This document shows, piece after piece, positions 62 through 40,826 of a stretch of DNA of 64,000 nucleotides. Where the stretch lies: contig JBMFRC010000011.1 of NCBI GenBank assembly GCA_049968235.1, positions 32,001-96,000 of the forward strand, read 5' to 3'. Made by a program: the position numbers and the translations under genes. The DNA comes from Candidatus Hydrogenedens sp. (GTDB lineage: Bacteria; Hydrogenedentota; Hydrogenedentia; Hydrogenedentales; Hydrogenedentaceae). The notes under the pieces are model-generated. The model was not told the DNA's origin and did not search any database. It saw nothing but the letters and a program-made list of their open reading frames with translations. Positions within the stretch are counted from its first letter, which is position 1, and every line of letters starts with the position of its first letter.

Positions 62-1045
62 ATGAAGAAAAAAGGTTTCACACTCATCGAACTGCTGGTC
101 GTTATTGCAATCATTGGCATCCTCGCTGCAATATTGTTACCAGCACTGGCACGGGCACGCGAAGCGGCAAGACGCTCCAGCTGCCAGAACAATTTAAAAC
201 AATGGGGTCTCGTTTTCAAAATGTATTCTAACGAGGCGAAGGGAGAACGGTTTCCTCCCATTCAGGCAGGTGGTTATAAGAATGTAAATGGGCAACTTAA
301 ACCTGTTTTAGATGCAGGACCCAATGTATTTGTTCTGTATCCGGAATATCTGACGGACCCCATGATTATCTTTTGTCCATCGGATGCAGAATTAGGTCAA
401 TCTATTGCCAAAGCACATCTCAATGGGGATGTTAATCAAGATTGGTGTATTGGTTATGCGGATAGCAATGGTGGAAATTGTGCGCGTGCCATTGACGCGA
501 GTTATGGCTATTTAGGTTGGGTTTTAGATAAAGGGAATTGTCCCCCGCAAGACCCCGTATCTACGCTTAGCAGTTTTACCTATTTAGGCACGATTGCGTC
601 ATTCCTTGGTGTAACAATTGACATGAACACCGAAGTTTCTACACAAGTTGGTTCAGCACTGGATTATTTGGTTCAACAAATATTGCCATTATTGAGTGGA
701 AGTAGTATTCCCAATGGAATTCTTCCCATAGCTGACAATGATATACCTGTTCCTAATGGTGTAGGAAACGGTGGTGGTTCTACTGTATATCGTCTTCGTG
801 AAGGTATTGAACGTTTCTTGATCACAGACATTAACAATCCAGCAGCATCAGCACAAGCCCAAAGTTCCGTATGGATTATGTTTGACCAGTTATCAACCAA
901 TCCTGCGGCATACAACCATATTCCCGGAGGTTCAAATGTGTTATACATGGATGGTCATGTGCAGTTCCAGAGATATGGTGAATGTGAACCTGCTCCTGTG
1001 AATAAGCCTATGGCAGTCCTTGTGGGTATTTTGACCTCCAATTAG
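62..1045 (+). CDS. DUF1559 (H-X9-DG) protein with prepilin-type N-terminal cleavage/methylation domain (type IV pilin-like)
   Basis: N-terminus [44 protein letters not shown] is the hallmark class-III signal / DUF1559 head. C-terminus [17 protein letters not shown] matches the H-X9-DG motif. SD-like AAGGAG lies upstream. Confidence 0.85.
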
Positions 1046-19608: not shown

Positions 19609-22305
19609 CTAGTTCGGATGAAGCGTAAAGGAATCAATCCAGATATTTACATTATTAAGGGTACATGGGTCAATACGAATTGCCTTAATTTTTCCGTTCC
19701 AATTAGGATGGTCCCGTAAATTAAAGGTATAGGTATAATAACCTCCATCTACACGAATAGGTATTGTAATGGAGTTTTCCTCATTGAATTGTAACCCTTT
19801 TGATGACCAATATAACTGTGCTTTATTTTCCATTGGTGCTGGATTTTCTACACGCAATCGTAAAGTGGCTCTTGGAAATTGATTTGCATTAATACCTTTT
19901 GTACCATAGTAAAAGAAATAAATAGATGGGTCATCTGTATTCGTTCTACCTGTAAGACTTCCTTCCTCTACTTTTATATCATTCATACCTCTGAATACCT
20001 TCCATCCTGATAATGATTCATGGAAGTCCCATGATGTCTCAAAAGCAGGGACAGGAAAGTCATACGGTCCCAATCCTATGTCATCGGGAGAAATATTAAC
20101 AGGCAATGGTTGTGTATTGGATGAGACAAAAACATTGCGAATGGCTTCATACATTGTAAATCCAAATTCTGTATTAGGCTCGATATAACTACCTTCTCCC
20201 CATTCGTTTAATGGGCCTAAAATAATTATTGGTATTTTTTTCTCTTCCGCAAAATCACGAGCGGACAATAACATTGTCTTGAACAGTTCTGAAGTCCTTC
20301 CCTCAATAACCAATGCCTTGGAACCATGCCAGGGACGCGAATCCCAACCTGTTTCTACAATGGGATAATAAGTCATTCCTTCACATAAAGCGCTTTTCTC
20401 CATCCAAACAGTTGGTATTGTAGAAACAACATCTTCATATTTAGCACGGTTAGGGATTTGGCTCATATAAACTGCTTTATAAAATTCATGGTAATTTGTA
20501 AACGATGAATAACCTTCGTTTTTTAATGTTTGCAACTCAGAGGCAGATTGATTGTTGTTTATCGCCATAAATTCAATACCTTCGTAGCCTGCTTCTTTAG
20601 CCCATTGCTGGGATTTTTCTAACAATGCCTTTACTGCTTCGGAACTACCTAAATCATGGCGAATATTCTCCGGGGACCAGATGCACACAAGTGGTTTATT
20701 ATTAACCCTATAATAAGATGGTAAATTAAAATAGTTATCTATCCATTCTCTATTTACCTTTTCCCAGTCTTCGGCAGAGTGGGTATTGGGAGGATTATGG
20801 TTTGCCCACATAATTGCTACTTTCAAATAATCTCTATACTTTGCTTTGCGATAGGCTTCGAACCAATGAGTTAAGGATTGTTTTCCCGCAACCCAATACC
20901 AATCAACAAGGAAACATTTAATTCCATTCTCTACAGCCCATTTAATCTGCCAATCCACACACTCCGGATTTCCTTCATTATAATAACCCAAAATAGGTTT
21001 TCTTATGGGAGCTGTTGTTTGAATACAATCCCATTTTTCGAGAGTATCCCAACCTGGGAAATAAAACGCACATATATCTATTTTAGTTTTAATTGGTTTC
21101 GGTTCAGGGACATATTCTGCGGATATTTTTCTAATTTCAGGTAATACCTGTAATTCTCCGGTATTGATAGTTAATACAGTTCCTTTGGATAAAGGTATAA
21201 CCTCTATGGGATAGATGCCTGATTTTTCTGGAGTAACTTTCCAGTAAACATCTATGAAATCATCATATTCAATTTCATACGGAGGCTCGGGAATGGGTCC
21301 TTTTTCTATTCTTAAAGAACCCGGATGATTAAATTTTAGATTATCAATACGGGCAACACTACCTCCCTGATTGGAAAGTCGTAATAAAACAGGGACTTCT
21401 CTACCCGCTCGTATACCACCTTGAGCAGAACCGAAATAAGAGACTACGACTTCAGGTTTGTTCAGTGGTTCTTCCCCAATAGACAGAGAATTTATTTTTA
21501 TATTTGAACCATCGTGAATATAAAATCCTAAGGCAAGAATGGGTTCTTTCCATGTAGAATATTGAGACATGTCAATAACACTAACATGCATTTTGTTATC
21601 AGTAACCAATGGTAGAGAAATCGTTTGAGGTCCTAAAATATCCTGACTTGCCCAAATAAAATCTATTGAATTAGCACTTTTACTTGCAGAATACTCAATT
21701 GAAAGATATTTTCTCTTTCCAATAAGCAATGATATAGGTTTAAAGAAATAATAGGGGCTATTTTCTGAATCAATTTTCCATGAGGAGATATCCCCTTCGG
21801 GGAATTGCCACTCGTAAACATCTGTAACAGGGGGTTCCCCTTTATCCCATGTTTTTACAGAAATTTTCTCTAATTCAAATTCCAGAGCATCACACAAATC
21901 CAATCGTATTTTAATAATTTTCCCCTCTTTATGCCAGAATGGAAAAACATAAATATCCTGCCAATCATTCTTTTCTTCAAAACTAAAATTGACAGATTTA
22001 TCTCCCGATAGCCCTCCGTATTGTCCTTCATTTGTTCCGGACCAAAATATCTGCCCCATACCTCCATGGTTTGTTTTCATACGAATATGTATGTATTGAT
22101 AGGGAGTTGGAACAAATTCAATTCCTTTGCATAAAAGAAAAGGGTCTGTACCTTGTGTTCTACCCTGCAATTTTCCACCTTCTATTTTTACATCCTGTAT
22201 CTGTCCATTCGGAACCCATTTCTGTAATACTTCGGGATTATCAAATGTCCATTCAGGAAGTTGACAATTTAGGAAATATAGGATAACTAAGGAAGTTAAT
22301 AACAT
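19609..22305 (-). CDS. Secreted GH99-like / WbsX-like domain protein with repeated terminal beta-sandwich-like modules
   Basis: Central segment ICAFYFPGWD...LGYYNEG...ENGIKCFLVDWYWVAG...AIMWANHN resembles the WbsX/GH99-like signature. N- and C-terminal ~60-aa segments share W...I.DVKIEGGKL.GRT.G.DP. N-terminal signal peptide. Confidence 0.5.
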   Translation of the reverse strand: MLLTSLVILYFLNCQLPEWTFDNPEVLQKWVPNGQIQDVKIEGGKLQGRTQGTDPFLLCKGIEFVPTPYQYIHIRMKTNHGGMGQIFWSGTNEGQYGGLSGDKSVNFSFEEKNDWQDIYVFPFWHKEGKIIKIRLDLCDALEFELEKISVKTWDKGEPPVTDVYEWQFPEGDISSWKIDSENSPYYFFKPISLLIGKRKYLSIEYSASKSANSIDFIWASQDILGPQTISLPLVTDNKMHVSVIDMSQYSTWKEPILALGFYIHDGSNIKINSLSIGEEPLNKPEVVVSYFGSAQGGIRAGREVPVLLRLSNQGGSVARIDNLKFNHPGSLRIEKGPIPEPPYEIEYDDFIDVYWKVTPEKSGIYPIEVIPLSKGTVLTINTGELQVLPEIRKISAEYVPEPKPIKTKIDICAFYFPGWDTLEKWDCIQTTAPIRKPILGYYNEGNPECVDWQIKWAVENGIKCFLVDWYWVAGKQSLTHWFEAYRKAKYRDYLKVAIMWANHNPPNTHSAEDWEKVNREWIDNYFNLPSYYRVNNKPLVCIWSPENIRHDLGSSEAVKALLEKSQQWAKEAGYEGIEFMAINNNQSASELQTLKNEGYSSFTNYHEFYKAVYMSQIPNRAKYEDVVSTIPTVWMEKSALCEGMTYYPIVETGWDSRPWHGSKALVIEGRTSELFKTMLLSARDFAEEKKIPIIILGPLNEWGEGSYIEPNTEFGFTMYEAIRNVFVSSNTQPLPVNISPDDIGLGPYDFPVPAFETSWDFHESLSGWKVFRGMNDIKVEEGSLTGRTNTDDPSIYFFYYGTKGINANQFPRATLRLRVENPAPMENKAQLYWSSKGLQFNEENSITIPIRVDGGYYTYTFNLRDHPNWNGKIKAIRIDPCTLNNVNIWIDSFTLHPN

Positions 22306-22393: not shown

Positions 22394-22429
22394 TATACCC
22401 GCCGAAATTATCAAATCTCGGCGGGTATA
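22394..22429 (-). terminator. Rho-independent terminator hairpin after the EF-hand repeat protein gene
   Basis: TATACCCGCCGA / TCGGCGGGTATA is a perfect 12-bp stem, followed on the minus strand by T-rich sequence. Confidence 0.6.
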
Positions 22430-22455: not shown

Positions 22456-25400
22456 TTACTTAAGCCCACCACAATAACCATCCTCTTCTTCAGGACATAT
22501 TCTGTAACCACCCATGTTAAAGAACTGTATTAACCGCAATAATTCATTAAGGCCAATACGCCAATCTTGTGGAGCATAATCGCTGGTATGCGGTGGACAA
22601 TTGTGGAATGAATCATTTCTTCCAGGGGCATATCCATCTTCTGTCGAACCTTCACAATGATACCCAAAGGAGTTAAATAGTTGAATAACGCGAAGTAGTT
22701 CTCCTATTTCAAATTTCCAATTAAAGTTTCTATCCGCAGAATGTATTCCATGTGGGATTTCTCCTTCTGGCGTGCCTTCCGCAACACCTTCGGGTATGCC
22801 CTCTGGTGTCCCTTCTACAATACCTTCTGGCTGTCCCTCGGGTATGCCTTCTGGCGTGCCTTCCACAACACCTTCGGGTATGCCCTCTGGGGTTCCTTCA
22901 ACGATACCTTCCGGTGTCCCTTCTACAACACCTTCTGGCTGTCCCTCGAGGACACCTTCGGCTGTACCTTCTAAGACACCTTCCGGTGTCCCTTCCGCAA
23001 CGCCTTCGGGTTGTCCTTCCGGTATCCCTTCTGCAACACCTTCCGGTTGTCCTTCGGGTGTGCCTTCAACGACGCCTTCTGGGGTACCTTCTACGATACC
23101 CTCCGGTTGTCCTTCGGGTATGCCTTCGGGAGAGCCTTCTACTGTTCCTTCACCTTCAGGAGAAGGTAAGAAATCGGAGCAGTCAAGAACGCCATTATCA
23201 TTCTTATCTGCAACATCAAACTGGTCTTGTGTAATTTTTGAACTCAAAGCACGCACTTCCGTTAGAGTTAATTCATTATCACCATTCGAATCGAGTTTGG
23301 GTAGCAAATTAAATATGGAACTTACTGCTGTAAATTCTTCAAAAGTTAATTGATTATCCCTGTTCTTATCTACCAGATACCATACGCCAGCAATAATTAT
23401 ATCACTCCAACCTGTCAGGGATTTAAATTCGCTTTTTGATAACAAACCATCGCCATTGGTATCTCCAAATAGGAGCATAATCAGGAAATAATGTTCAATA
23501 TCATCAATATCACAGGTAGGAGGTTCCCCTTCTATAACACCTTCCGGGATGCCTTCAGGAGTACCCTCAACTATACCTTCACCTTCAGGTATACCTTCAG
23601 GAATACCCTCTTGTGTCCCCTCTGGTGTACCTTCCGGGGTGCCTTCCGGGGTGCCTTCAGGTGTTCCCTCTGGTGTGCCTTCCGGGGTACCTTCAACTAC
23701 ACCTTCGCCTTCAGGCAATACAAAGTCATTGCAATCAAGAACACCGTTTTGATTTAAATCCACTGCATTTAACTGGTCCATAGTTATATTGGAATTCAGG
23801 TTTTGCAATTCTATAAGCGTAAGGGCACCATCGTTATTTCCATCTAATCCTGGCAACAGGTTATACAACCACTCCACCTTAGAGAACTCTTCAAGAGATA
23901 ACTGATTATCTCCATTCGTATCAACGGCACTCCATAATAATAGGACAGTATCACTCCAACCTGTAATGGCTTTAAGTTCTTCTTTAGATAATAATCCATT
24001 CCCATCTGTGTCGCCGAACATAATCAAGATATAGTAGTAATGTGTAATATCATCAATATCACAGGGTGGTTCACCTTCAAAAGTCCCCGGACAAGGTGGA
24101 CAACCACCACCGTTCAGGGTCTGATTAATATCCAGTGCAGAAAGAATAAAGGTATCTATATCCGTAGGTGCAAATACATAGGCTTTATACTCACCTATAT
24201 TACAGACTTCATCAAAATCCGGGTCACCGGCGGAAGCAAGGTATTGTCCTGCGGTTAAATCATATCCGTTTAATGTGAATGTGCCCCAGAACATTAATGT
24301 ATCAATCACATTCACAATAGAATTGATAAACGATTGTTCACCTGTAGTAAGGACCCCAGCAACAACATTGATAAATGTTGTGTTCGAGAAAATCGTGCTT
24401 AATAATGGAATAGAATCCCATTTGCTTTGAGCCACAACACGATTATTCATATATGCGTTTTTCACACAGCAGAAAATAGGCAATTCCGGATGTGCAAGAA
24501 TATAATCTAACAATCTTGCCTGTGCAACATCATACATACCATTACCATCTATATCCGCTGTATCGGGATTTACGCTAAGGAAAGAAGCAATGCCATATAA
24601 ACTGCGTAATGCTGTTTCAAACCCCGCATTTACTGCAGTTTGATTGCAGTTATCCCAGCACCATTCAGCATAACAAGATTCTGGAAGTGGACCCATAATA
24701 TCGATGCAGTCGAGATAGCCATTGCCATCAATATCATGTTGATTAAATTGGTCTTGTGTAATTTTGGAACTCAATTGCCTTATTTCAGTTAAAGTTACCT
24801 GATTGTCGCCATTCGAATCGAGGTTTGCAGGTAAAAGTCCACCCAAACGATTGCTGGCTACAAATTCGTCAAAGGACATAAAACCATCACCGTTTTTATC
24901 AATTATCCACCATCCTAAATCTAAAAGGAACCCTGTTACAAAGGCTTTTAATTCATTTTTTGTTAACTTACCATCACCATTTGTATCACCAAACATTATT
25001 AACAATGCGAAATAGTTTTCATCAGAACGCATATTACAGGGAGGTGGACCTCCACCTTCGCCTTCACCTTCAACGGTTCCTTCTGCCCCACATGCGGGAC
25101 AACCACCATAATAATCTGTAATACTACTATTAATAGCCGCATTCACAAATGCATCAAAGTCCGCAGGTGTGTTCACAACCCATGCTTTGTATTCACCAAT
25201 ATTGCAGACACCGTCCAAATCCGCATCACCTTTGGCATTCAGATAAACAATATTTGAGCCATCCAATTCTAATAAGGAAAGGTCGGGTAAGTTAGGAATT
25301 ATCCAATTCAACGCTGATAGAATAGTATTAATAATTGCTGTGTTCCCCATTGTTGCCAGTGCTGCGAAGAAGGTTTTCATACCTTCAAGGTCTGGTGGCG

Positions 25401-25824
25401 TTCCTAAATAGGATGGCCAGCCTGTCTGTATGGCAAGTGCTAACGCTTCCACTTTCAAACGATTGCCTGCATACGCCCAATATATACAATTACGAGTGGG
25501 TATCCCACCAATTAATGAAAAACTTCCCATAATTGTATCGAATAAACGTGCCTGGGCAGTATCTTTCATTCCATCAAAATCTAAATCAAGATTATCTGGA
25601 TTTCCTCCAATTAATGGGATTTTCGCATATAATTCCCGCATTGAATTTTCAAAACTTTCAGTATATACAGGACCGGGTATTAAATTATTGCAATTAGGAA
25701 TATTGCAATAATCCACTTCTGCATCTGTTTGTGCAACTGATGAAGAAGAAAAAACAAAACATACACTCATGATAAGGAACAAAGTTCCTATGTATATTTT
25801 GCTTGTATTAATCTTAATGTTCAT
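22456..25824 (-). CDS. Secreted multi-module Ca-binding protein: 2x ~220-aa domain, 3x calmodulin-like four-EF-hand modules, (xPEG)n linkers, duplicated C-terminal motif
   Basis: Signal peptide. Canonical EF-hand loops (DTNGDGKLTKNE, DKNGDGFMSFDE, DSNGDNQVTLTE, DIDGNGYLDC) repeat in three ~150-aa modules. Long (G/V/I/Q/T)PEG runs. C-terminal tandem ELLRVIQLFNSFGYHC / ELLRLIQFFNMGGYRIC. Confidence 0.6.
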   Translation of the reverse strand: MNIKINTSKIYIGTLFLIMSVCFVFSSSSVAQTDAEVDYCNIPNCNNLIPGPVYTESFENSMRELYAKIPLIGGNPDNLDLDFDGMKDTAQARLFDTIMGSFSLIGGIPTRNCIYWAYAGNRLKVEALALAIQTGWPSYLGTPPDLEGMKTFFAALATMGNTAIINTILSALNWIIPNLPDLSLLELDGSNIVYLNAKGDADLDGVCNIGEYKAWVVNTPADFDAFVNAAINSSITDYYGGCPACGAEGTVEGEGEGGGPPPCNMRSDENYFALLIMFGDTNGDGKLTKNELKAFVTGFLLDLGWWIIDKNGDGFMSFDEFVASNRLGGLLPANLDSNGDNQVTLTEIRQLSSKITQDQFNQHDIDGNGYLDCIDIMGPLPESCYAEWCWDNCNQTAVNAGFETALRSLYGIASFLSVNPDTADIDGNGMYDVAQARLLDYILAHPELPIFCCVKNAYMNNRVVAQSKWDSIPLLSTIFSNTTFINVVAGVLTTGEQSFINSIVNVIDTLMFWGTFTLNGYDLTAGQYLASAGDPDFDEVCNIGEYKAYVFAPTDIDTFILSALDINQTLNGGGCPPCPGTFEGEPPCDIDDITHYYYILIMFGDTDGNGLLSKEELKAITGWSDTVLLLWSAVDTNGDNQLSLEEFSKVEWLYNLLPGLDGNNDGALTLIELQNLNSNITMDQLNAVDLNQNGVLDCNDFVLPEGEGVVEGTPEGTPEGTPEGTPEGTPEGTPEGTQEGIPEGIPEGEGIVEGTPEGIPEGVIEGEPPTCDIDDIEHYFLIMLLFGDTNGDGLLSKSEFKSLTGWSDIIIAGVWYLVDKNRDNQLTFEEFTAVSSIFNLLPKLDSNGDNELTLTEVRALSSKITQDQFDVADKNDNGVLDCSDFLPSPEGEGTVEGSPEGIPEGQPEGIVEGTPEGVVEGTPEGQPEGVAEGIPEGQPEGVAEGTPEGVLEGTAEGVLEGQPEGVVEGTPEGIVEGTPEGIPEGVVEGTPEGIPEGQPEGIVEGTPEGIPEGVAEGTPEGEIPHGIHSADRNFNWKFEIGELLRVIQLFNSFGYHCEGSTEDGYAPGRNDSFHNCPPHTSDYAPQDWRIGLNELLRLIQFFNMGGYRICPEEEDGYCGGLK
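22760..23165 (-). repeat. 12-bp periodic in-frame tandem repeat encoding (xPEG)n, ~34 units
   Basis: Near-perfect 12-nt periodicity (ccttc[t/c]gg[n][t/g][t/g][n]c) is visible directly. It creates spurious long antisense ORFs. Confidence 0.8.
23530..23715 (-). repeat. Second 12-bp periodic (xPEG)n coding repeat block
   Basis: Same 12-nt unit encoding EGTPEGTPEGTPEG... Confidence 0.8.
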
Positions 25825-25914: not shown

Positions 25915-26373
25915 CTAACAAAGAAGAGGGAGGAAAGGTATTTTTGAAGAAATCTTCATTTCTACATCTTTTGAAAGTGAGTAATATTGCTTTGTGATAT
26001 TTTCCTCTTTATTTTGACAAAAATTTGTCTCAATTAAATTATTATGATTAGTTAAATTTTTCAATAAAAGCGAAGTTTTTTCTGTTCTTAATATAGAACT
26101 AAATAAAATCATGTTTTTTAATGTTCTGGGTGTGGGAACTTTTGTTTTTTCATTCTTAATTTTTTGAACAATCAGACACAAATCACGAACATCAATTGTA
26201 GAATCCCCGTTCATATCTTTTATTTCTGCAGTAAGTGAGGAGTTCGCTTGATTTAATATAGAAGTTAAGACACTTTGCCATAATATAACATTCAGATTTT
26301 GAAATGTGCTTATCATCATTAGGGGATATAAAAATAGTCCCAAAACTGTAAAAACACAAACAAACTTTTTCAT
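25915..26373 (-). CDS. Small secreted protein with a single dockerin/EF-hand-like segment
   Basis: Start at ATG 26373 with GAGGAG SD. Signal peptide MKKFVCVFTVLGLFLYPLMMIS. DMNGDSTIDVRDLCLIVQKI resembles a type-I dockerin repeat. Lies directly upstream of the EF-hand giant gene on the same strand. Confidence 0.45.
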   Translation of the reverse strand: MKKFVCVFTVLGLFLYPLMMISTFQNLNVILWQSVLTSILNQANSSLTAEIKDMNGDSTIDVRDLCLIVQKIKNEKTKVPTPRTLKNMILFSSILRTEKTSLLLKNLTNHNNLIETNFCQNKEENITKQYYSLSKDVEMKISSKIPFLPLLC

Positions 26374-26510
26374 TTCAAAACTCCTCATATATATATTATA
26401 ACATATAAACACATAAAATAAATATCAAATTTGATGTTTTTTTTGTTAAAATATTTTTGGAGTTTTTTATTTATTTTTTAAGAAGTATTTTTAATTATGG
26501 GATTTTGAGA

Positions 26511-32916: not shown

Positions 32917-33008
32917 GTTTTTATACCAAATTTTCATGCTTATGATCTTTTTATGTTAAAATATATTTGGTATTATTTTATCTAATACATAAAGCAAGGA
33001 TATTTTGG

Positions 33009-36000
33009 ATGAAAGATTTATCTCTAATTTATAAGATGATAGGTAAAAAAAATTCGTATTCTTTTCTTTTTTCATTATTAATTTTTTTCTTTTTATTTAT
33101 TTGTTCGGGATTTTCAGAAGTAAATACGGGGCAAAAAACCGTAGAAAAACAGGGGATATTAAACATTACTCAAAGTCTCTCACAAAATCCGGATTGTGCT
33201 ATAGATTCTTTTCTTGATGTAACTGTTGAGTTAACATACACAGGAGAAGACCCCCTACTCACATTAGGTCTAAGGGAAATAGTGCCAGAAGGACTTGTTT
33301 ACGAAGAGATTATAAGTGGTTCCGCACCTCCACTCCAACCTTCAAGAGGGGCTTTTGGAACCTTAGAATTTGGTTGGATTTTTGTTCCCTCTTTTCCAGC
33401 CTCTTTTACGTTTCGTTTAAGATTTGCACAACCTATTAGTGGTAATCAATTTATTACAGGAATTGGTATTTTTGCATCATTTGGAGACCCTCAGGAAACT
33501 GAACCTGTCATTTCCTACTTTGACTGTCCAACTATTGAAGGTCAAACCGAAGGAGAAGGGATAGTCGAAGGTGAGGGGCAAATTGAAGGAGAGGGAATAA
33601 TCGAAGGAGAAGGGAGCATAGAAACAGTATATTTAAATATATCATCAAAATCAGGAGATATATATGCTCCCGAACAAGAAATGGAATTTGAAGTTAATAT
33701 TTCGTATTTAAATCCTCTGGAAATCACTGCCTTAGGAGCAACGGTATTTTTGCCTGAGTATTGGCAATTTGTTAAATTTACTGCGGGTTCTCCTCCGCCT
33801 ATTTATTATTTCGATACGGAAACAGGGAAAGCAGAATTTGCATGGATATTTCTTCCATCTGGAGGAATTACTTTTTCCTTTTCTGTCCTTGTTTCGCCTG
33901 AAACAGAGGGTATTCAGGAAATATCCGGTTATGGGATATATAGAACAACGGGAGAACCAATCACCACAACTATTTCGAAAATATATTTAACACCTGTCCC
34001 CAAACCAGACCTTACTTTGCTTTCGGGAATAGTTACACCGTCAAACCCTTTTTCCCAGGGGATTATATCAATTAACTACACGGCAAAGAATACAGGTTTT
34101 GTAAATATTGACAACAAAAGTTGGAGTGATTGTTTTTACTTATCTAATGATGAATGGCTTGATGAAACAGATGTTGAAATAACCTGTATCACCAATAATA
34201 CTTCTGTTGCGGTTGGCGGACAATATTCAAATTCATTAAAAGCAAAATTACCTTCTTCTGCATTTGGAAATATGTATCTTCTTGCTTACCTAAATAAGAC
34301 AAAGACTATTTATGAAGAATCAAGGGACAATAATGTTGGGGTTATAGGAATTATTCAAATACAAGCCAGAGAATATGATTTTCGACTAACTACAGGTATA
34401 ACAGAAGAGGATGTAGGCACACCTATTCCTATCAAAATATATGCGTATAATCCTGAAACCCTACAACCTGCTGTAAATAAACAAATCGTTTTGCAAATTG
34501 CTCATCGAGGATTCTCAAAAACTTACACTTTCACTACTGACCAGAATGGGGAAATAAATTATACATATTTCCCTATATCCAACACAGAAGGAGGGATATA
34601 TAGCATATCTATCAGAGACCCAAGGGAAGAAGATTATCCTATTACTGAAGAAGTCTTATTGCGAGGACTTGCGATAACCCCCTCCCACTATTTTCTTGAG
34701 GTTATACCTAACAAAACATATACCATTCCCTTTAATATTATCAATTTAGGGGATACGGAAGAAAAGCAATTATCATTCATGATAACAGGAATACCTCCTG
34801 ATTGGAATTATGATTATGTTATTCCTTCCTCAATACAGGGACAATCTAAAGAAACTTGTAAACTTATCCTTTATTCCAAGCCAACAACACAGAATAGCTT
34901 CCCTATAATGCTTAATTTACAAAGTAATTCAAAAACTCTTGCAACCGCTCAATATGATATTCTACCCAAACCCTATCAAACGGTAATAACATCTATTCCT
35001 GAAGAGGTTTCTTTACCTTTACTTCTCGAGAAAACTCAGTTTTATACGATAGAACTAAAAAATCAAGGAGGAAAAGATTCAGGACCCGCTCGAATACAAA
35101 TCGAACCTGAAAACCCGAATATTCATTTAGTTACTCCAAACACAGTTTACAATATTCCAGCAGGTTCAAGTTATTTCGTTTCATTACAGGTAGGAATCCC
35201 ATTTATAGAAATTCCAGAACCTATAGAGACATCCCTATCTATTCGTTTTGAATCGGGATTAAATGTGAGCATTCCTATAAAAGTTATTGAGGATACGACA
35301 AAAAGTTTAACAATAAATGTATTTAACAAATATACGAATGAAGCTATCCATAATGCTTCCGTTTCTATCGTTAGTGAAACAGGTATTCTTTCTACTTCTC
35401 AAATCAATAATGATGGAATAGTTGAAGTTAATAATCTACCTGAACCTCCTTTTTCTATTGTAATACTAAGTGAGGGATTTGAAAGCCAGACCTATTTTAT
35501 ATCAAATTTAAAGAGCAATCACGAAATGATTGATATTTATTTAGAACCGTTCTTATCTAAACAATTCTGGTCTTACACAATCGATAATAATCAGAAGCTA
35601 TATCTACTATCAGTATCCAATAGTTCTGCTCTTGAACCAGACAACACTTCTGTATTAACAATATCGCCAGGTTATATTCCTTTTATTACAACAGAAATAT
35701 CTCATAATTCTACACTTTCCATTACCAATCAAGGGATTAAACCTTTATATGATGTTTATTTATATCCATTCCAAACTGACTTATTAAATATACAGTATCC
35801 TGTTCAATACTTAGGAACAATAGAACCGCAATCTTCTGTTAATATTCCTGTCCTTTCACAGATATCAGAATCATTTGATTTTGATTCCTCGTGTTCTTCA
35901 TCGATCTTGACGGGTATCATTTTTTCGGAACAAACTAACAATTCGGATATATCCCAATTTATGGTAATGCCTTTATGGAATACAGAAGTTTTATGTCCGG

Positions 36001-39000
36001 ATTTTACTCCTATCTATGGGGATTTTTATCAAATAAATAGAATAAATCCTGATACAACCATTGTTCCAGTAAACATTCAAATATCCCTGCCAGATAATCA
36101 ATCCAATCAAAATGTACCTATTCTTTCCTACGCAACCGGGCAAATGACCTTAGCCACAGGAGAAATTCTACCCATTGTAATGAAAACTGCTACTCGGACA
36201 GGGCTTTATGAGCAAATAGATATTCAATGGCAAATTCATAATGCGGAAAACAATGAGGATATAACTTCTCTATTCCAGATATTTGAATTATCTAATTTTG
36301 AGAAAACAGATTTGTTTAATAATATAGAGAAAAAACAATGGTTACTTTATCCCTTGCATGAATTTTGGGAAAACCCGATATCGGAAATTCGATTATTCGC
36401 ACAAATTCATATTATTTCATTACTGGGGACATGGGATATATCCTCTCCCCCGCTACCTTTGAAGATTCTTTCACAACCTATACTTATGGAACATATATTT
36501 GCTCCTCAAATTCACGAATTGCAAATTTCTTCCAGTGCGGATAACTCAGGAGAAACGGTTCTACCTTTAGCGATTCTTATTTCTCCAACAGATAATATTA
36601 ATCTCCCTATAAAATTTGAATGGGAGAATATTCAATATTTACATGAAACAGGAAATATTGCTTCCTTATCCTTAATCCAAACGGCAATAAATGGAATAGG
36701 AACGCAATATCAACAAATCACATATAACAACATTTCTTTGCAGAAAGAAAAAACCAACTCTTATTTGTGGTACTTTTTATCTCCACCTCTTTCAAATAAA
36801 TGGCAGTTAGTTTCTCGATGGACTTACAAAGACAATAAGGGTACTCTTTTACCCCTTATTACCAGGGAACAATATCATGATTTACTGCATACTATTGAAG
36901 TTACAGGAGAAAATGCTTCAATAACAACTGGATTACTTAGTAATGATGATAATGATGAACAGAGAATACCTGATATTATCTATTTGCCGGATGGAAAAAC
37001 CTTAAGTATATCTACACCCTCCAATCCTATCTGGGTGTCTATAAATAATTCCCACAGAGAATATGGTATTGTCTATAGTTCTTCACAACAGTCTGATTAT
37101 GTTTATTTGCATTCCAATTTTCCGGAGGATGTTCCTGAAGATGCCGTTATCCTCCGTATCCTTAGAAGCGATTCAACTGTTATTCCATCTGCCAATTATT
37201 GGGTTAGTAAATCTATGAATATGAGTCATAAACATGACCCTGTAAAACCTTCCTTACATTTTGTTGATAAATCGGGCTACAACTCATATATTGTGGAATT
37301 TCAATCCGAATCGTTAGAGAATAAGCCTCCTATCGCTAATGCAGGAGAGGACATAACAAATGTATATCGTCCCTCATCTATAACTCTTGACGGGTCTGGG
37401 TCCTATGACCCGAATGGAGACCGAATTAATTATTCATGGCGTCTTATCAGCAAACCTCTTGAGAGTTTTGAATATCTAAGAAACGCAGATACAGCAAATC
37501 CCATTTTAATTCCAGACCTTCCCGGAACTTATATTGCACAACTTATTGTTTCTGATGGTTTTGCTCAAAGTGAACCCGATACGGTTGTTATTGAAGTTGT
37601 TAATCGTTTACCGGAGATTGTAATTAATGCTCAACAAAAAGCAAGACCTCGCGATATCGTTGTCTTAGATGCATCATCCGTAGTAGACCCTGATGGAGAT
37701 GAAATAGAATTTTTATGGAAACTGGCAACCAAACCCGATGGTAGTCGTGTATCACTACAGGGAGTTTTTAATAATACAATAACAATTACACCGGATGTAT
37801 TGGGTCAATATGAATTTATCTTATACATATCAGATGGCTTTGACAACTCATTTGCCCATTGGAAATTAGATGTTTACAACCATCTCCCTGAAATTGCAAT
37901 CGGGTTTCCACCGACTGTTTATTTAAATACAAATGTATCTATTTCTGCACGGGATACTTTTGATATTGACAACGACCCATTATCTTATCAATGGAGATTG
38001 GTTTCTGCACCGGTGGGAAGCAATACAATACTTAGTTCTTTTACTCAGCCCGAAACCAGTTTTGTATCCGATAAAAGAGGCACTTATACATTAAAACTTG
38101 AAGTTTTTGATACTTATGAAAAAACAGACAAGACAATTTCTTTACAATGTGTTAATAGGAAACCTCAAACAATTGTAAATCCCAGTGCTATTGAAGTTCC
38201 ACATGGTAAAACGGTTATTTTCGATGCTACGCAAAGTTCAGATTTAGATAATGACCCACTCACTTTTAATTGGGGACTTCTTTCCCGTCCTATATTAAGT
38301 AGTGCGGAAATTTATTTAATTCAAAACAATATAGCTGGGTTAAAAACAGACGCACCTGGAAAATATAGTGTAACCTTACAAATAAACGATGGATTTGAAT
38401 CGGGTGAGATAGTAATATCTCAAATCACAGCAACCAATAATCCTCCAGAGATACAATGTCCGGAACAACCTATTCCAGGTTCAGTAGGACAACCTTTAAC
38501 AATACTATTACCCGAAATAAATGACCCGGAACAGGACCCTATCACATATTCATGGGAAATTATTTCAAAACCAGTAGAAAGTATGATAGGTCTCATTAAC
38601 TCTGTAGAGCCTGCATTTACATTCACACCTGACCGTAAAGGAACTTATGAAATTCAAGTTATAATATCCGACGCATGGGGAGGTAATACATCTTGTGTTA
38701 TTACAACAGAAATTACCAATCAACGCCCTGTGGCGGTAATTCAATCCGAGACGCAGAGTTTTATAAATACTCCTGTATCTCTATCAGCAGAAAGTAGTTA
38801 TGACCCGGATGGGGATGTTATAAAAGATTATCAATGGACAATTATCAGCAAACCACAGGGAAGTTTTGCTCAATTGTCCAACCCTACAGGTGTTACAACA
38901 CAACTGATTCCTGACAAACACGGCAATTATCAGGTGCAACTTCAAATTTATGATGGTAATATGTGGAGTAATCCTGCCATAACAACAATCACCACGGAAA

Positions 39001-40826
39001 ACCGTCCACCTGTAATAACTGTCATTGCATCTGAATATCTTGAAATTGGGGCTTCTAATGTTTTAGATGCTTCTTTAAGTTATGACCCGGATGGAGATGA
39101 GCTTTCCTTTAACTGGAAACTTATCGATAAGCCCAAACAAAGTAAAACGGAATTAAATAGCGATAACGAATCTATTTGTTCCTTTATACCCGATTATCCA
39201 GGATACTATTCTATTGAATTACTTGTCTCAGACCCATATTCTTCTGTATCTCGTTCCGAAATCGTTCTCCGAACCTTTAATCTTCCACCGATAGCAATCA
39301 TATCTGCACCTCAAATAATAAAAGTGGGAGATGAAGTAGTATTAGATGGGACAAACAGTTATGACCCGGATGGAGATTTGATTACATACCAATGGCAATT
39401 ATCTTTTCGCCCTAATGATAGTCAAACTACTTTAAGTTCATTAACAGAACCTATAACACAATTGTATATTGATAAAGCGGGAACTTATACTATCGAACTT
39501 CAAGTCAACGATGGAAAAACGACATCGGATATAAGTACTATCTCCCTCTCAACAGGAAATGTTGCCCCTACTGCTGTCGTGGAAAAAGATAAAAATGCTG
39601 TTGTGGGAAGACCATGTTATCTCGATGCAAGCGCCAGTTTTGACCCTAATAACGATGAGTTAGTTTACATCTGGACATTCATATCCCGACCTGATGGAAG
39701 TCAGGCAGAAATTTTTGAAACGAATTCCCCCAATCCTTACTTCATACCCGATGTCGAAGGTAATTACGAAATACAATTAATTATTTCTGATGGGTACCTG
39801 TTTAGTAAACCTGTTGTTATCCGTATTAGTACCACAAACAATCCTCCAGTAGCACAATTAAAACAAGATGAGTTCCAAGTATATGTGGGGGATACTGTTA
39901 TTATTGACGGTTCAGATAGTTATGACATAGATAATACTTCTATTTACTATGAATGGATATTATTCTCAAAACCTGAAGATAGTAAACTCACAATTCAAAA
40001 TGCTGACCAACCTATTATTACATTAAACATAGACAAAAAAGGGTTCTATCAGGGAACTCTTGTTGTTAATGATGGATTTTTAAGAAGTAATATAGTAAAT
40101 TTCCAGATTACATGTATAAATCATCCTCCTATTGCTATTATCAAAGGACCTGAAACTGCATTTATTGGAGATACAATAACCCTGGATGGCTCGGATAGTT
40201 ACGATTCTGACATGGATGTATCTGAATTAGGGTATAAGTGGTCTATTGTTTCGATGCCAACAGGGAGTTCTGTTACACTGTTAAATCCAAACTTAAAAGT
40301 TATTAATTTTATGGTGGACATAGACGGAGTTTATGAATTTCAACTTATTGTAAATGACCAGGAAACCGATAGTAGCCCCGTAACTCACAAGATAATTACA
40401 ACCTGTAATAAACCTGCACATCCATCAGGGGTTTATGCAACCGATGGAATTTACCCTGACAGGATATTTATTTCATGGAATTCTTCACCGGGGGCTGTGG
40501 AATATCGTGTTTATAGAAATGATGAAGATAACCTTGCCTCTGCCGTCCCTATATCACCATGGACAGGTAACCTTTATTATGAAGACACAATAACTATAGA
40601 TGTTCCGGAACCCAGTAAAACTGCTTGTGGATGTTCTGCTAATTGCAATGAAATGTGCAATCCTCTGGAAACAACCATAACGAAATTTTATTGGGTCATT
40701 GCAAGAATTAATGAAAACTGCGTCAGCGAATTTAGTAATTCGGAAAGTGGTTCTATTACGGTTTCTTCTTCCAATCAAAAGTTACCGAACTTTATTTGCA
40801 ATATTTTAAGAATTTTCATGAAGTAA
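33009..40826 (+). CDS. Giant secreted/surface adhesin-like protein (2605 aa): signal peptide, (GEGxIEGEG)n linker, CARDB-like domain, long middle region, 11 tandem PKD-like ~93-aa repeats, C-terminal FN3-like domain
   Basis: Start at ATG 33009 ahead of a hydrophobic signal. EGEGIVEGEGQIEGEGIIEGEGSIE linker. CARDB-like segment LTLLSGIVTPSNPF...NTGFVNIDN...WSDCFYLSNDEWLD. Repeats share A.AG.D..........LDGS.S.DPDGD...Y.W..ISKP.GS. C-terminal Fn3-like GAVEYRVYRND. Confidence 0.75.
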   Translation: MKDLSLIYKMIGKKNSYSFLFSLLIFFFLFICSGFSEVNTGQKTVEKQGILNITQSLSQNPDCAIDSFLDVTVELTYTGEDPLLTLGLREIVPEGLVYEEIISGSAPPLQPSRGAFGTLEFGWIFVPSFPASFTFRLRFAQPISGNQFITGIGIFASFGDPQETEPVISYFDCPTIEGQTEGEGIVEGEGQIEGEGIIEGEGSIETVYLNISSKSGDIYAPEQEMEFEVNISYLNPLEITALGATVFLPEYWQFVKFTAGSPPPIYYFDTETGKAEFAWIFLPSGGITFSFSVLVSPETEGIQEISGYGIYRTTGEPITTTISKIYLTPVPKPDLTLLSGIVTPSNPFSQGIISINYTAKNTGFVNIDNKSWSDCFYLSNDEWLDETDVEITCITNNTSVAVGGQYSNSLKAKLPSSAFGNMYLLAYLNKTKTIYEESRDNNVGVIGIIQIQAREYDFRLTTGITEEDVGTPIPIKIYAYNPETLQPAVNKQIVLQIAHRGFSKTYTFTTDQNGEINYTYFPISNTEGGIYSISIRDPREEDYPITEEVLLRGLAITPSHYFLEVIPNKTYTIPFNIINLGDTEEKQLSFMITGIPPDWNYDYVIPSSIQGQSKETCKLILYSKPTTQNSFPIMLNLQSNSKTLATAQYDILPKPYQTVITSIPEEVSLPLLLEKTQFYTIELKNQGGKDSGPARIQIEPENPNIHLVTPNTVYNIPAGSSYFVSLQVGIPFIEIPEPIETSLSIRFESGLNVSIPIKVIEDTTKSLTINVFNKYTNEAIHNASVSIVSETGILSTSQINNDGIVEVNNLPEPPFSIVILSEGFESQTYFISNLKSNHEMIDIYLEPFLSKQFWSYTIDNNQKLYLLSVSNSSALEPDNTSVLTISPGYIPFITTEISHNSTLSITNQGIKPLYDVYLYPFQTDLLNIQYPVQYLGTIEPQSSVNIPVLSQISESFDFDSSCSSSILTGIIFSEQTNNSDISQFMVMPLWNTEVLCPDFTPIYGDFYQINRINPDTTIVPVNIQISLPDNQSNQNVPILSYATGQMTLATGEILPIVMKTATRTGLYEQIDIQWQIHNAENNEDITSLFQIFELSNFEKTDLFNNIEKKQWLLYPLHEFWENPISEIRLFAQIHIISLLGTWDISSPPLPLKILSQPILMEHIFAPQIHELQISSSADNSGETVLPLAILISPTDNINLPIKFEWENIQYLHETGNIASLSLIQTAINGIGTQYQQITYNNISLQKEKTNSYLWYFLSPPLSNKWQLVSRWTYKDNKGTLLPLITREQYHDLLHTIEVTGENASITTGLLSNDDNDEQRIPDIIYLPDGKTLSISTPSNPIWVSINNSHREYGIVYSSSQQSDYVYLHSNFPEDVPEDAVILRILRSDSTVIPSANYWVSKSMNMSHKHDPVKPSLHFVDKSGYNSYIVEFQSESLENKPPIANAGEDITNVYRPSSITLDGSGSYDPNGDRINYSWRLISKPLESFEYLRNADTANPILIPDLPGTYIAQLIVSDGFAQSEPDTVVIEVVNRLPEIVINAQQKARPRDIVVLDASSVVDPDGDEIEFLWKLATKPDGSRVSLQGVFNNTITITPDVLGQYEFILYISDGFDNSFAHWKLDVYNHLPEIAIGFPPTVYLNTNVSISARDTFDIDNDPLSYQWRLVSAPVGSNTILSSFTQPETSFVSDKRGTYTLKLEVFDTYEKTDKTISLQCVNRKPQTIVNPSAIEVPHGKTVIFDATQSSDLDNDPLTFNWGLLSRPILSSAEIYLIQNNIAGLKTDAPGKYSVTLQINDGFESGEIVISQITATNNPPEIQCPEQPIPGSVGQPLTILLPEINDPEQDPITYSWEIISKPVESMIGLINSVEPAFTFTPDRKGTYEIQVIISDAWGGNTSCVITTEITNQRPVAVIQSETQSFINTPVSLSAESSYDPDGDVIKDYQWTIISKPQGSFAQLSNPTGVTTQLIPDKHGNYQVQLQIYDGNMWSNPAITTITTENRPPVITVIASEYLEIGASNVLDASLSYDPDGDELSFNWKLIDKPKQSKTELNSDNESICSFIPDYPGYYSIELLVSDPYSSVSRSEIVLRTFNLPPIAIISAPQIIKVGDEVVLDGTNSYDPDGDLITYQWQLSFRPNDSQTTLSSLTEPITQLYIDKAGTYTIELQVNDGKTTSDISTISLSTGNVAPTAVVEKDKNAVVGRPCYLDASASFDPNNDELVYIWTFISRPDGSQAEIFETNSPNPYFIPDVEGNYEIQLIISDGYLFSKPVVIRISTTNNPPVAQLKQDEFQVYVGDTVIIDGSDSYDIDNTSIYYEWILFSKPEDSKLTIQNADQPIITLNIDKKGFYQGTLVVNDGFLRSNIVNFQITCINHPPIAIIKGPETAFIGDTITLDGSDSYDSDMDVSELGYKWSIVSMPTGSSVTLLNPNLKVINFMVDIDGVYEFQLIVNDQETDSSPVTHKIITTCNKPAHPSGVYATDGIYPDRIFISWNSSPGAVEYRVYRNDEDNLASAVPISPWTGNLYYEDTITIDVPEPSKTACGCSANCNEMCNPLETTITKFYWVIARINENCVSEFSNSESGSITVSSSNQKLPNFICNILRIFMK
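37320..40420 (+). repeat. Array of 11 diverged tandem ~280-bp units encoding PKD-like Ig-fold domains
   Basis: Protein-level periodicity read directly from the translation. The units are diverged at DNA level. Confidence 0.7.

Follow-up and report, generated by a model that had tools for sequence, protein, structure and literature searches.

A duplicated, dockerin-like module at the ends of exported proteins in Hydrogenedentota

A stretch of 64,000 nt from Candidatus Hydrogenedens sp. (assembly GCA_049968235.1, contig JBMFRC010000011.1, positions 32,001 to 96,000 of the forward strand), here termed the window, contains a gene for an exported protein of 1122 amino acids that ends in a 94-amino-acid module. 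The module is made of two copies of one unit and recurs on many otherwise unrelated proteins of Hydrogenedentota, a globally distributed phylum that is known almost entirely from metagenome-assembled genomes (MAGs). It may represent a docking module that depends on Ca2+ and has one conserved partner in the cell envelope, a reading held with close to, but short of, even confidence.

The original prediction, that the protein ends in two copies of the same unit, is borne out, and by far more than chance would give. Residues 1028-1069 and 1079-1120 align without gaps, with 16 identities in 34 positions (47%; E = 6e-10 in a single BLASTP comparison). The helix motif ELLR(V/L)IQ(L/F)FN is found in the window only at 22672..22701 and 22516..22545 (regular expression, six frames). 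When a hidden Markov model (HMM) of the family was run on the 972 open reading frames (ORFs) of the window, this reading frame scored 149 bits (E = 1.4e-45) and all others were at noise; the end module matches positions 1-93 of the 95 in the model, with a domain E-value of 7e-44. The final 100 residues of the 1122-amino-acid frame read ...IPHGIHSADRNFNWKFEIGELLRVIQLFNSFGYHCEGSTEDGYAPGRNDSFHNCPPHTSDYAPQDWRIGLNELLRLIQFFNMGGYRICPEEEDGYCGGLK. The gene and the parts of its end module are:

22456..25824, minus strand: gene for the 1122-amino-acid exported protein, stop codon counted in (ORF list)
22465..22746, minus strand: end module, residues 1027-1120, 94 amino acids, then LK and the stop codon (family HMM)
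22618..22743, minus strand: repeat 1, H1028-G1069, with HSAD, a 12-residue EF-hand-type loop, the helix ELLRVIQLFN (22672..22701) and a beta-hairpin, GYHC...EDGYAPG
22699..22734, minus strand: repeat-1 loop, D1031-E1042, 12 residues, EF-hand type
22465..22590, minus strand: repeat 2, H1079-G1120, with HTSD, a 13-residue loop, the helix ELLRLIQFFN (22516..22545) and a beta-hairpin, GYRIC...EDGYCGG
22543..22581, minus strand: repeat-2 loop, D1082-E1094, 13 residues, non-canonical

The duplication is a trait of the whole family. It is seen in the consensus of 280 unique instances, HSADQNxDxxIxLSELLRVIQFFNSxGYHCxxGTEDGYAPGxGDxxCxPHxSDYNPQDWxIxLSELLRLIQFFNSGGYHxCPxxEDGFCPG, where the repeat period is ∼51 residues and conservation is 73-100% at ten successive helix positions of each repeat. 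Loop 1 follows the pattern D-x-[ND]-x-[DN]-x-x-I-x-L-x-E, with the aspartate at family position 5 and the glutamate at position 16 present in 100% of instances. The EF-hand ligand set is kept in 270 of the 280, and 179 satisfy a strict EF-hand pattern of the PROSITE PS00018 type. The window loop (DRNFNWKFEIGE; D-R-N-F-N-W-K-F-E-I-G-E) has the ligands D1, N3, N5 and E12. The module had first been read as devoid of the Ca-loop aspartates, which does not hold for repeat 1; only repeat 2 is non-canonical, its loop being D-Y-N-P-Q-D-W-x-I-x-L-S-E, of 13 residues, with the strict pattern in none of the 280. Repeat 1 thus most likely binds one Ca2+ via the canonical EF-hand ligand set.

Four cysteines are a further conserved feature. 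Cys1057 and Cys1076 correspond to family positions 31 and 49, both of which are cysteine in 276 instances, both lost in two and singly present in two. Cys1110 and Cys1118 (positions 83 and 91) are both present in 238, both absent in 37 and single in four. As the cysteines vanish in pairs, Cys1057 with Cys1076 and Cys1110 with Cys1118 most likely form two disulfides, metal sites being less likely, and the same pattern points to an extracytoplasmic location. An AlphaFold2 model from a 100-amino-acid query has a predicted local distance difference test score (pLDDT) of 93.4 and a predicted template modelling score (pTM) of 0.84. The model has helices at 18-29 and 70-82 only, and strands at 33-35/43-45 and 85-87/95-97, so that within each repeat a loop leads into a helix of 12-13 residues and then a beta-hairpin; neither loop is preceded by a helix.

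Three paralogues from one assembly, CAYYRW01 (L028:1507-6333, L046:1606-6369 and L049:6495-9461; L numbers denote genomic loci, and P numbers below denote proteins), carry an in-frame insertion, ...DKGLQPLV(L/W)RQITK(V/M)DC..., between repeats 1 and 2. It is duplicated in L046 and looks like a small repeated element at one common site.

The family is large. By word index, 42 homologues were retrieved, with identities of 52-67%, along with two distant ones at ∼40%; all matches with an organism name are labelled Hydrogenedentes, Hydrogenedentota or Hydrogenedens, and the majority of matches are short entries marked 'partial'. When 1.84 billion representatives of 50%-identity clusters were searched exhaustively with a profile, 3064 clusters came up at E ≤ 1e-3, with 1413 at E ≤ 1e-30, and a scan of one genome per species gave at least 594 matching stretches, 580 of them confirmed. 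The best 80 of these more than 580 stretches, on which all counts per assembly and per MAG rest, come from 19 assemblies, nearly all Hydrogenedentota, and hold 96 motif-bearing ORFs. The three richest single MAGs have at least 28, at least 17 and at least 15 module ORFs; recurrence on many substrates, which a sorting signal would usually display, is therefore confirmed. No copy was found in the viral contigs searched.

Copies are as alike between genomes (identity 0.70-0.73) as within one (0.71-0.75), which points to a constraint common to the whole lineage. A genome-specific module signature, as would be expected of species-specific partners such as those of cellulosomes, was looked for and not found. 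Divergent relatives come partly from Patescibacteria. One of them, P0061, is the Candidatus Buchananbacteria protein MFA6421814.1 with tandem modules, and the domain therefore extends past Hydrogenedentota, where its architectural setting is different.

Dozens of modules are also held by assemblies with the title 'uncultured Nitrospirales bacterium' (L003, L025, L062 and L063 (CAZJTZ01), and other 'binchicken' MAGs), several of which appear to be Hydrogenedentota. Since L003 is gene-for-gene syntenic with Candidatus Hydrogenedens terephthalaticus and with the window, the Nitrospirales record title of CAZJTZ01 looks taxonomically wrong.

Searches of Pfam (2025) and NCBIfam (2026) revealed no model that matches the module alone, and for 36 relatives compared with both libraries at E ≤ 10, all matches were to EF-hand or Dockerin_1 loops and below threshold. 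A match to a described domain, be it the C-terminal domain (CTD) of type IX secretion system (T9SS) cargo, PEP-CTERM or dockerin, had been named as an outcome that would refute the original prediction; none is above HMM threshold. The literature searched, phylum-focused Hydrogenedentota genome papers included, yielded no description of the motif or of such a domain. The data suggest that assemblies break in the repetitive DNA that encodes the linkers, hiding the family. With contigs broken there, most database copies would be 'partial hypothetical proteins', and this is one likely reason why there is no Pfam or NCBIfam model.

Among 285 unique proteins or ORFs, the module is single and lies within 15 residues of the stop in 253 (89%); 21 have several modules, three have one near the N-terminus and eight have it elsewhere. 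An E/G/P-rich linker of at least 20 amino acids is directly upstream in 133 of 201 members (66%), with a median of 40 and a maximum of 210 amino acids. The passengers are diverse, with 66 Pfam families among 56 full-length members. They include Flg_new_2 (InlB-B-repeat-like), PASTA, LRR, CHRD, GLUG, Ig-like and beta-helix domains, peptidases M14, C1, M4 and C25 and FGE-sulfatase, which has the appearance of typical surface or secreted cargo. An N-terminal hydrophobic segment is present in 58 of 82 full-length members by a crude hydrophobic-window test. Unrelated Sec-dependent cargo, one terminal module, a flexible stalk and restriction to one lineage together form the genomic signature of a sorting or anchoring tag. 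A 2619-amino-acid surface-type protein of the window (32967..40826, plus strand; PKD/K319L-like, CARDB, Big_9, REJ and Sde0182_C domains) is without the end module, and thus not every large exported protein of the organism uses it.

The original prediction of a C-terminal domain that is specific to the lineage, serves sorting, anchoring or docking and recalls dockerins is accordingly right for the most part in kind. Lineage restriction, recurrence, the 89% C-terminal placement and dockerins as the best, weak structural match all agree with it; an obligate C-terminal position does not stand. In L065 and L067 the module directly follows the signal peptide and precedes linker and cargo, and in P0043, P0047 and P0048 it is both internal and terminal. 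Secreted proteins with two modules as their sole content are found as well (P0049, P0054 and P0056), and P0045, with three modules in tandem, has a signal peptide and modules only. Divergent tandem modules, a set that takes in P0045 and P0061, are also present in type-I membrane proteins (P0051, P0052 and P0055), in which two or three modules lie between a signal peptide and a transmembrane helix near the C-terminus, with a Lys-rich tail behind the helix. The rare copies at the N-terminus, inside a protein or in tandem favour a docking or anchoring module over a cleaved sorting signal. Dockerins and other non-covalent binding modules display the same positional tolerance, and this favours Ca2+-dependent docking.

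These placements bear directly on another explanation, whereby the module, as a sorting signal at the C-terminus, serves a dedicated outer-membrane machine for secretion and attachment. Such a signal, a functional analogue of the T9SS CTD, would be recognized in the periplasm, drive export across the outer membrane and then be removed or used for covalent attachment. A common end domain of 80-100 amino acids on dozens of unrelated Sec cargo proteins per genome is a signature of the T9SS CTD type, and the extreme conservation would fit a single recognizing machine. The organism is also diderm: a SurA-like chaperone and an outer-membrane Alginate_exp porin are encoded in the window. A C-terminal export signal should not, however, tolerate placement behind the signal peptide, internally or in tandem; there is no match to T9SS CTD or Haft-type sorting HMMs, and the fold predicted for the module resembles the helical one of dockerins and not a beta-sandwich. 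Nor are secretion or sortase genes found near module genes. The explanation is considered unlikely, though it retains some weight.

Docking thus remains the preferred reading, and it can be laid out as follows. The module would be an autonomous extracytoplasmic unit of two tandem loop-helix (F-hand) repeats, each extended by a Cys-bearing beta-hairpin. Repeat 1 would hold one Ca2+, the loop of repeat 2 would be remodelled and two disulfides would staple the whole. In each genome, long, flexible, acidic E/G/P linkers would join it to the ends of Sec-exported proteins that number in the dozens and are unrelated to one another, and the near-invariant helices (ELLRVIQFFN twice) would bind non-covalently to one conserved cell-envelope partner, either a receptor protein or a polymer. 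Passengers would thereby stay attached to the cell surface by flexible stalks. Calcium binding, disulfides, docking and a cell-surface location are what we infer here. To our knowledge, nothing is known of the Hydrogenedentota envelope.

Several observations weigh against this proposal. In the window copy, positions 4, 6 and 8 of loop 1 depart from the strict EF-hand pattern, and loop 2 is without canonical ligands. The Cys/His pattern H-C...C-x-x-H could be a metal site, e.g., for Zn, instead of disulfides. A partner gene did not emerge either: in ∼800 kb of flanking sequence, with 87 module-bearing ORFs in 79 loci and all neighbours clustered, there is no dedicated recurrent neighbour or cohesin-like gene, the cohesin result applying to neighbours of module genes. 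Lastly, in P0051, P0052 and P0055 the module is on the outward part of proteins anchored in the membrane at their C-terminus, and there it would be a binding head and not an anchor.

The last point leads to a further explanation, that of a Ca2+-dependent binding head, similar to a lectin or a carbohydrate-binding module (CBM), which directs its passenger to an external substrate, a prey or host surface or a matrix polymer. The modules of P0051, P0052 and P0055 are extracellular on proteins held by a C-terminal transmembrane helix, and P0061 has modules in tandem; in these relatives the exposed end, which does the work, must be the module. The secreted proteins that consist of two modules only (P0049, P0054 and P0056) also agree with a binding head, and a linker followed by a terminal binding module is the classical CBM layout. 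On the other hand, the cargo has mainly adhesin-like and protease domains, not glycoside hydrolases, and has no need of targeting to a common substrate. An identical helix surface across dozens of proteins and genomes is better explained by one self-encoded partner, and no similarity to CBM or lectin families is seen. The binding-head explanation is judged improbable, if worth keeping in mind.

Homotypic association is a third alternative: modules would bind one another in a Ca2+-dependent manner and cross-link their cargo into an extracellular protein coat or matrix. That the module has two-fold pseudo-symmetry within it and that its two helices remain identical is in keeping with this, as is the lack of a separate partner family among the neighbours. 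Proteins that have a signal peptide and two or three modules only (P0045, P0049, P0054 and P0056) could be natural cross-linkers. Multi-module proteins are few, however (21/285), and dockerins of solved structure, whose fold is nearest, have a different domain as their partner (PMC12484212). We regard homotypic association as very unlikely.

As to the genes around the module, the module genes are dispersed and sometimes occur as tandem pairs. The families that recur beside them are common metabolic and regulatory ones, including GFO/IDH/MocA oxidoreductases, sensor kinases and sigma-54 activators. Co-occurrence with a dedicated secretion or sortase-like system had been suggested as a check; none is present beside module genes in the window or in the flanks of the 79 loci. 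The genes of the window are of housekeeping type: rpoN, H+-pyrophosphatase, RNase III, ClpB, pyruvate dehydrogenase E2/E3 and transketolase.

A wider hypothesis is that the module is the address tag of a surface display or sorting system found throughout the phylum. One receptor or machine, not homologous to cohesins or to the T9SS, would capture dozens of exported proteins via a Ca2+-dependent, disulfide-stapled F-hand pair, and in Patescibacteria divergent forms of the module would have been turned into exposed binding heads. This hypothesis is tentative, and our confidence in it is well below even. The module offers a cheap listing of the surface proteome of Hydrogenedentota and, if used as bait, a handle for the receptor or machine that would organize it. 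A compact docking tag that is probably switchable by Ca2+ might also be of use in protein engineering, as cohesin-dockerin pairs are. The family moreover fills an annotation gap, with more than 3000 protein clusters and dozens of exported proteins per genome that have no Pfam or NCBIfam model.

The protein that carries the module in the window has a signal peptide, two copies of an orphan domain of ∼200 amino acids, three EF-hand modules of four loops each, two linkers rich in Pro, Glu and Gly (PEG linkers) and the end module, as read from the translation. One linker separates the second and third EF-hand modules, and the other directly precedes the end module. Further features of the gene are:

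25729..25824, minus strand: predicted Sec signal peptide, residues 1-32, MNIKINTSKIYIGTLFLIMSVCFVFSSSSVAQ (read from sequence)
25090..25728 and 24085..24687, minus strand: duplicated passenger domain of ∼200 amino acids, with ...DADLDGVCNIGEYKAWV... and a GGCPxC end (translation)
23524..23718, minus strand: first of the two PEG linkers, at residues 703-767 and flanked by EF-hand modules 2 and 3 (translation), with tandem repeats at 23581-23706 of period 12
22759..23163, minus strand: long E/G/P-rich linker, residues 888-1022, directly before the module (translation)
22394..22429, minus strand: intrinsic-terminator-like hairpin, a 16-bp stem followed by TTCTTTTATG, starting 27 nt past the stop; one found against 0.1 expected in shuffled sequences

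The long linker comprises ∼34 tetrapeptide units of the type x-P/x-E-G, and its DNA consists of tandem repeats with a 12-nt base period, in arrays at 22762-23140 (Tandem Repeats Finder). The plus-strand ORFs at 22752..23353 and 23491..23783 (56-193 amino acids, of the PSGMPSGVPS... type) are not genes; they mirror the minus-strand repeats that encode the PEG linkers. With the hairpin beyond its stop codon, the module gene is predicted to terminate its own transcript.

The EF-hand modules match Pfam EF-hand_1, 5, 6 and 7 at E-values of 1e-23 to 2e-29 and display twelve ordinary EF-hand loops. Residues 263-886, which hold them, also have weak NCBIfam matches to XopAW, a Ca-binding effector of the type III secretion system (57 bits against a cut-off of 120), and to LanM, lanmodulin (31 against 135). 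These matches probably reflect generic EF-hand similarity. The ∼200-amino-acid passenger domain has no Pfam match, and a word-index search with the N-terminal passenger domain found only its own fragment, P0191. This fragment, of 244 amino acids and N-terminal, is 100% identical and lies on a 2.6-kb contig of a Hydrogenedens sp. MAG; it was all that a collection of 15 billion proteins contained, the exact 1122-amino-acid protein not being found there.

Orthologues of the whole protein are present in the syntenic loci L001, L002, L003 and L051, at 89, 85, 73 and 67% identity, respectively; the orthologue of Candidatus Hydrogenedens terephthalaticus is the 89% identical one. The passenger domain is well conserved in all four, and the L051 protein is without the third EF-hand module. 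In the alignment of orthologues, linker lengths vary by insertions and deletions of whole repeat units, while the module stays conserved.

The downstream neighbour (19609..22305, minus strand) encodes 898 amino acids with a central domain similar to WbsX and to glycoside hydrolase family 99 (GH99), and its synteny with the module gene is kept in the same four loci. The upstream neighbour is a small protein:

25915..26412, minus strand: small ORF of 157-165 amino acids, depending on the start; a conserved gene

This gene is kept in three syntenic Hydrogenedens genomes, with orthologues at L001:2302-2775 and L003:2338-2790. The protein has an N-terminal hydrophobic segment, one dockerin-type loop, DMNGDSTIDVRDLC, and a conserved Cys at its extreme C-terminus. 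The loop reads DMNGDS(T/I)(I/V)DVRDLC, and DMNGDSTIDVRDL, a generic loop of the dockerin or EF-hand type, matches Pfam Dockerin_1 at E = 0.02, below the cut-off. There is no above-threshold Pfam family for the small protein, and none for its L001 orthologue. It had been thought to echo the helix of the end module, and the string DLCLIVQKI is indeed literally present in this ORF; the domain, though, is not common to both, as the family HMM gives 1.6 bits and E = 17 among the 972 window ORFs, which is noise. The resemblance is that of the generic helix by which EF-hand and dockerin motifs leave their loop, and the small gene is linked only to this group of orthologues and not to the module family.

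Near the start of the window, the ORF at 62..1045 (plus strand) has a prepilin-type N-terminal methylation motif and a DUF1559 domain.

When compared with known systems, the module is closest to the type I dockerin (PF00404), which consists of two EF-hand-like Ca-binding motifs with symmetric antiparallel helices (PMC12484212). The two have in common an internal duplication and a Ca-type loop that passes directly to a helix with no entering helix (AlphaFold2 model). Loop 1 has the D/N ligand pattern of dockerins. Both are also found mostly at the C-terminus behind a linker on many exported proteins, with occasional N-terminal, internal and double copies. They differ in size, the module having 95 HMM positions and a period of ∼51 residues, whereas dockerins have ∼60-70 amino acids and repeats of ∼22 residues with a short linker. 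The module has a conserved beta-hairpin (GYHC...EDGY) after each helix, as well as two co-varying Cys pairs. Position 12 of loop 1 is Glu in the module and Asp in dockerins, and loop 2 is a non-canonical one of 13 residues. Dockerins have species-specific recognition residues (PMC12484212), in contrast to the module with its lack of a genome-specific signature.

Sequence and structure comparisons give the same picture. The window module has no Pfam match at E ≤ 1, nor at E ≤ 10. Dockerin_1 matches are found in six of the 36 relatives, the best at E = 0.012 and all below the 22.9-bit cut-off, and EF-hand HMMs give sub-threshold matches in 23 of the 36. An hhalign comparison with the CelS and CelD dockerins of C. 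thermocellum, their sequences verified against PDB, has a probability of 24% over 15 columns and covers the Ca loop only. A profile search of PDB sequences likewise finds EF-hand loops only, at E ∼0.1. Foldseek reports nothing in PDB at E < 3, dockerins having the best TM-scores among weak structural matches. The module is architecturally dockerin-like, yet it fails the sequence and size tests of PF00404.

The ordinary EF-hand (PF00036/PF13405/PS00018) shares with the module the 12-residue ligand loop followed by a helix, as in loop 1. It differs in that the module has neither an entering helix nor a four-helix pair, the model displaying two helices, and in that the second loop is not an EF-hand. 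The module in addition has hairpins and cysteines, is extracytoplasmic and terminal by its features, and never reaches Pfam thresholds.

The sorting tags T9SS CTD, PEP-CTERM, LPXTG and GlyGly-CTERM have the same genomic pattern, namely one lineage-specific end domain (∼80-100 amino acids) on dozens of unrelated Sec-dependent proteins per genome. No Pfam or NCBIfam model of the T9SS CTD, PEP-CTERM or other sorting signals matches the module. The CTD is a beta-sandwich, whereas the module is a helical F-hand pair with hairpins that is tolerated N-terminally, internally and in tandem. In contrast to sortase and exosortase tags, the module protein ends in ...EEEDGYCGGLK and has there neither a hydrophobic stretch nor a transmembrane helix or basic tail. 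Type I secretion system (RTX) substrates have no N-terminal signal peptide and carry GGxGxD nonapeptide repeats; the window protein does have a signal peptide, as do 58 of 82 relatives by the crude test, and RTX repeats or matches are not seen. In light of these comparisons, the module is best filed as an undescribed variant of the dockerin/F-hand-pair kind.

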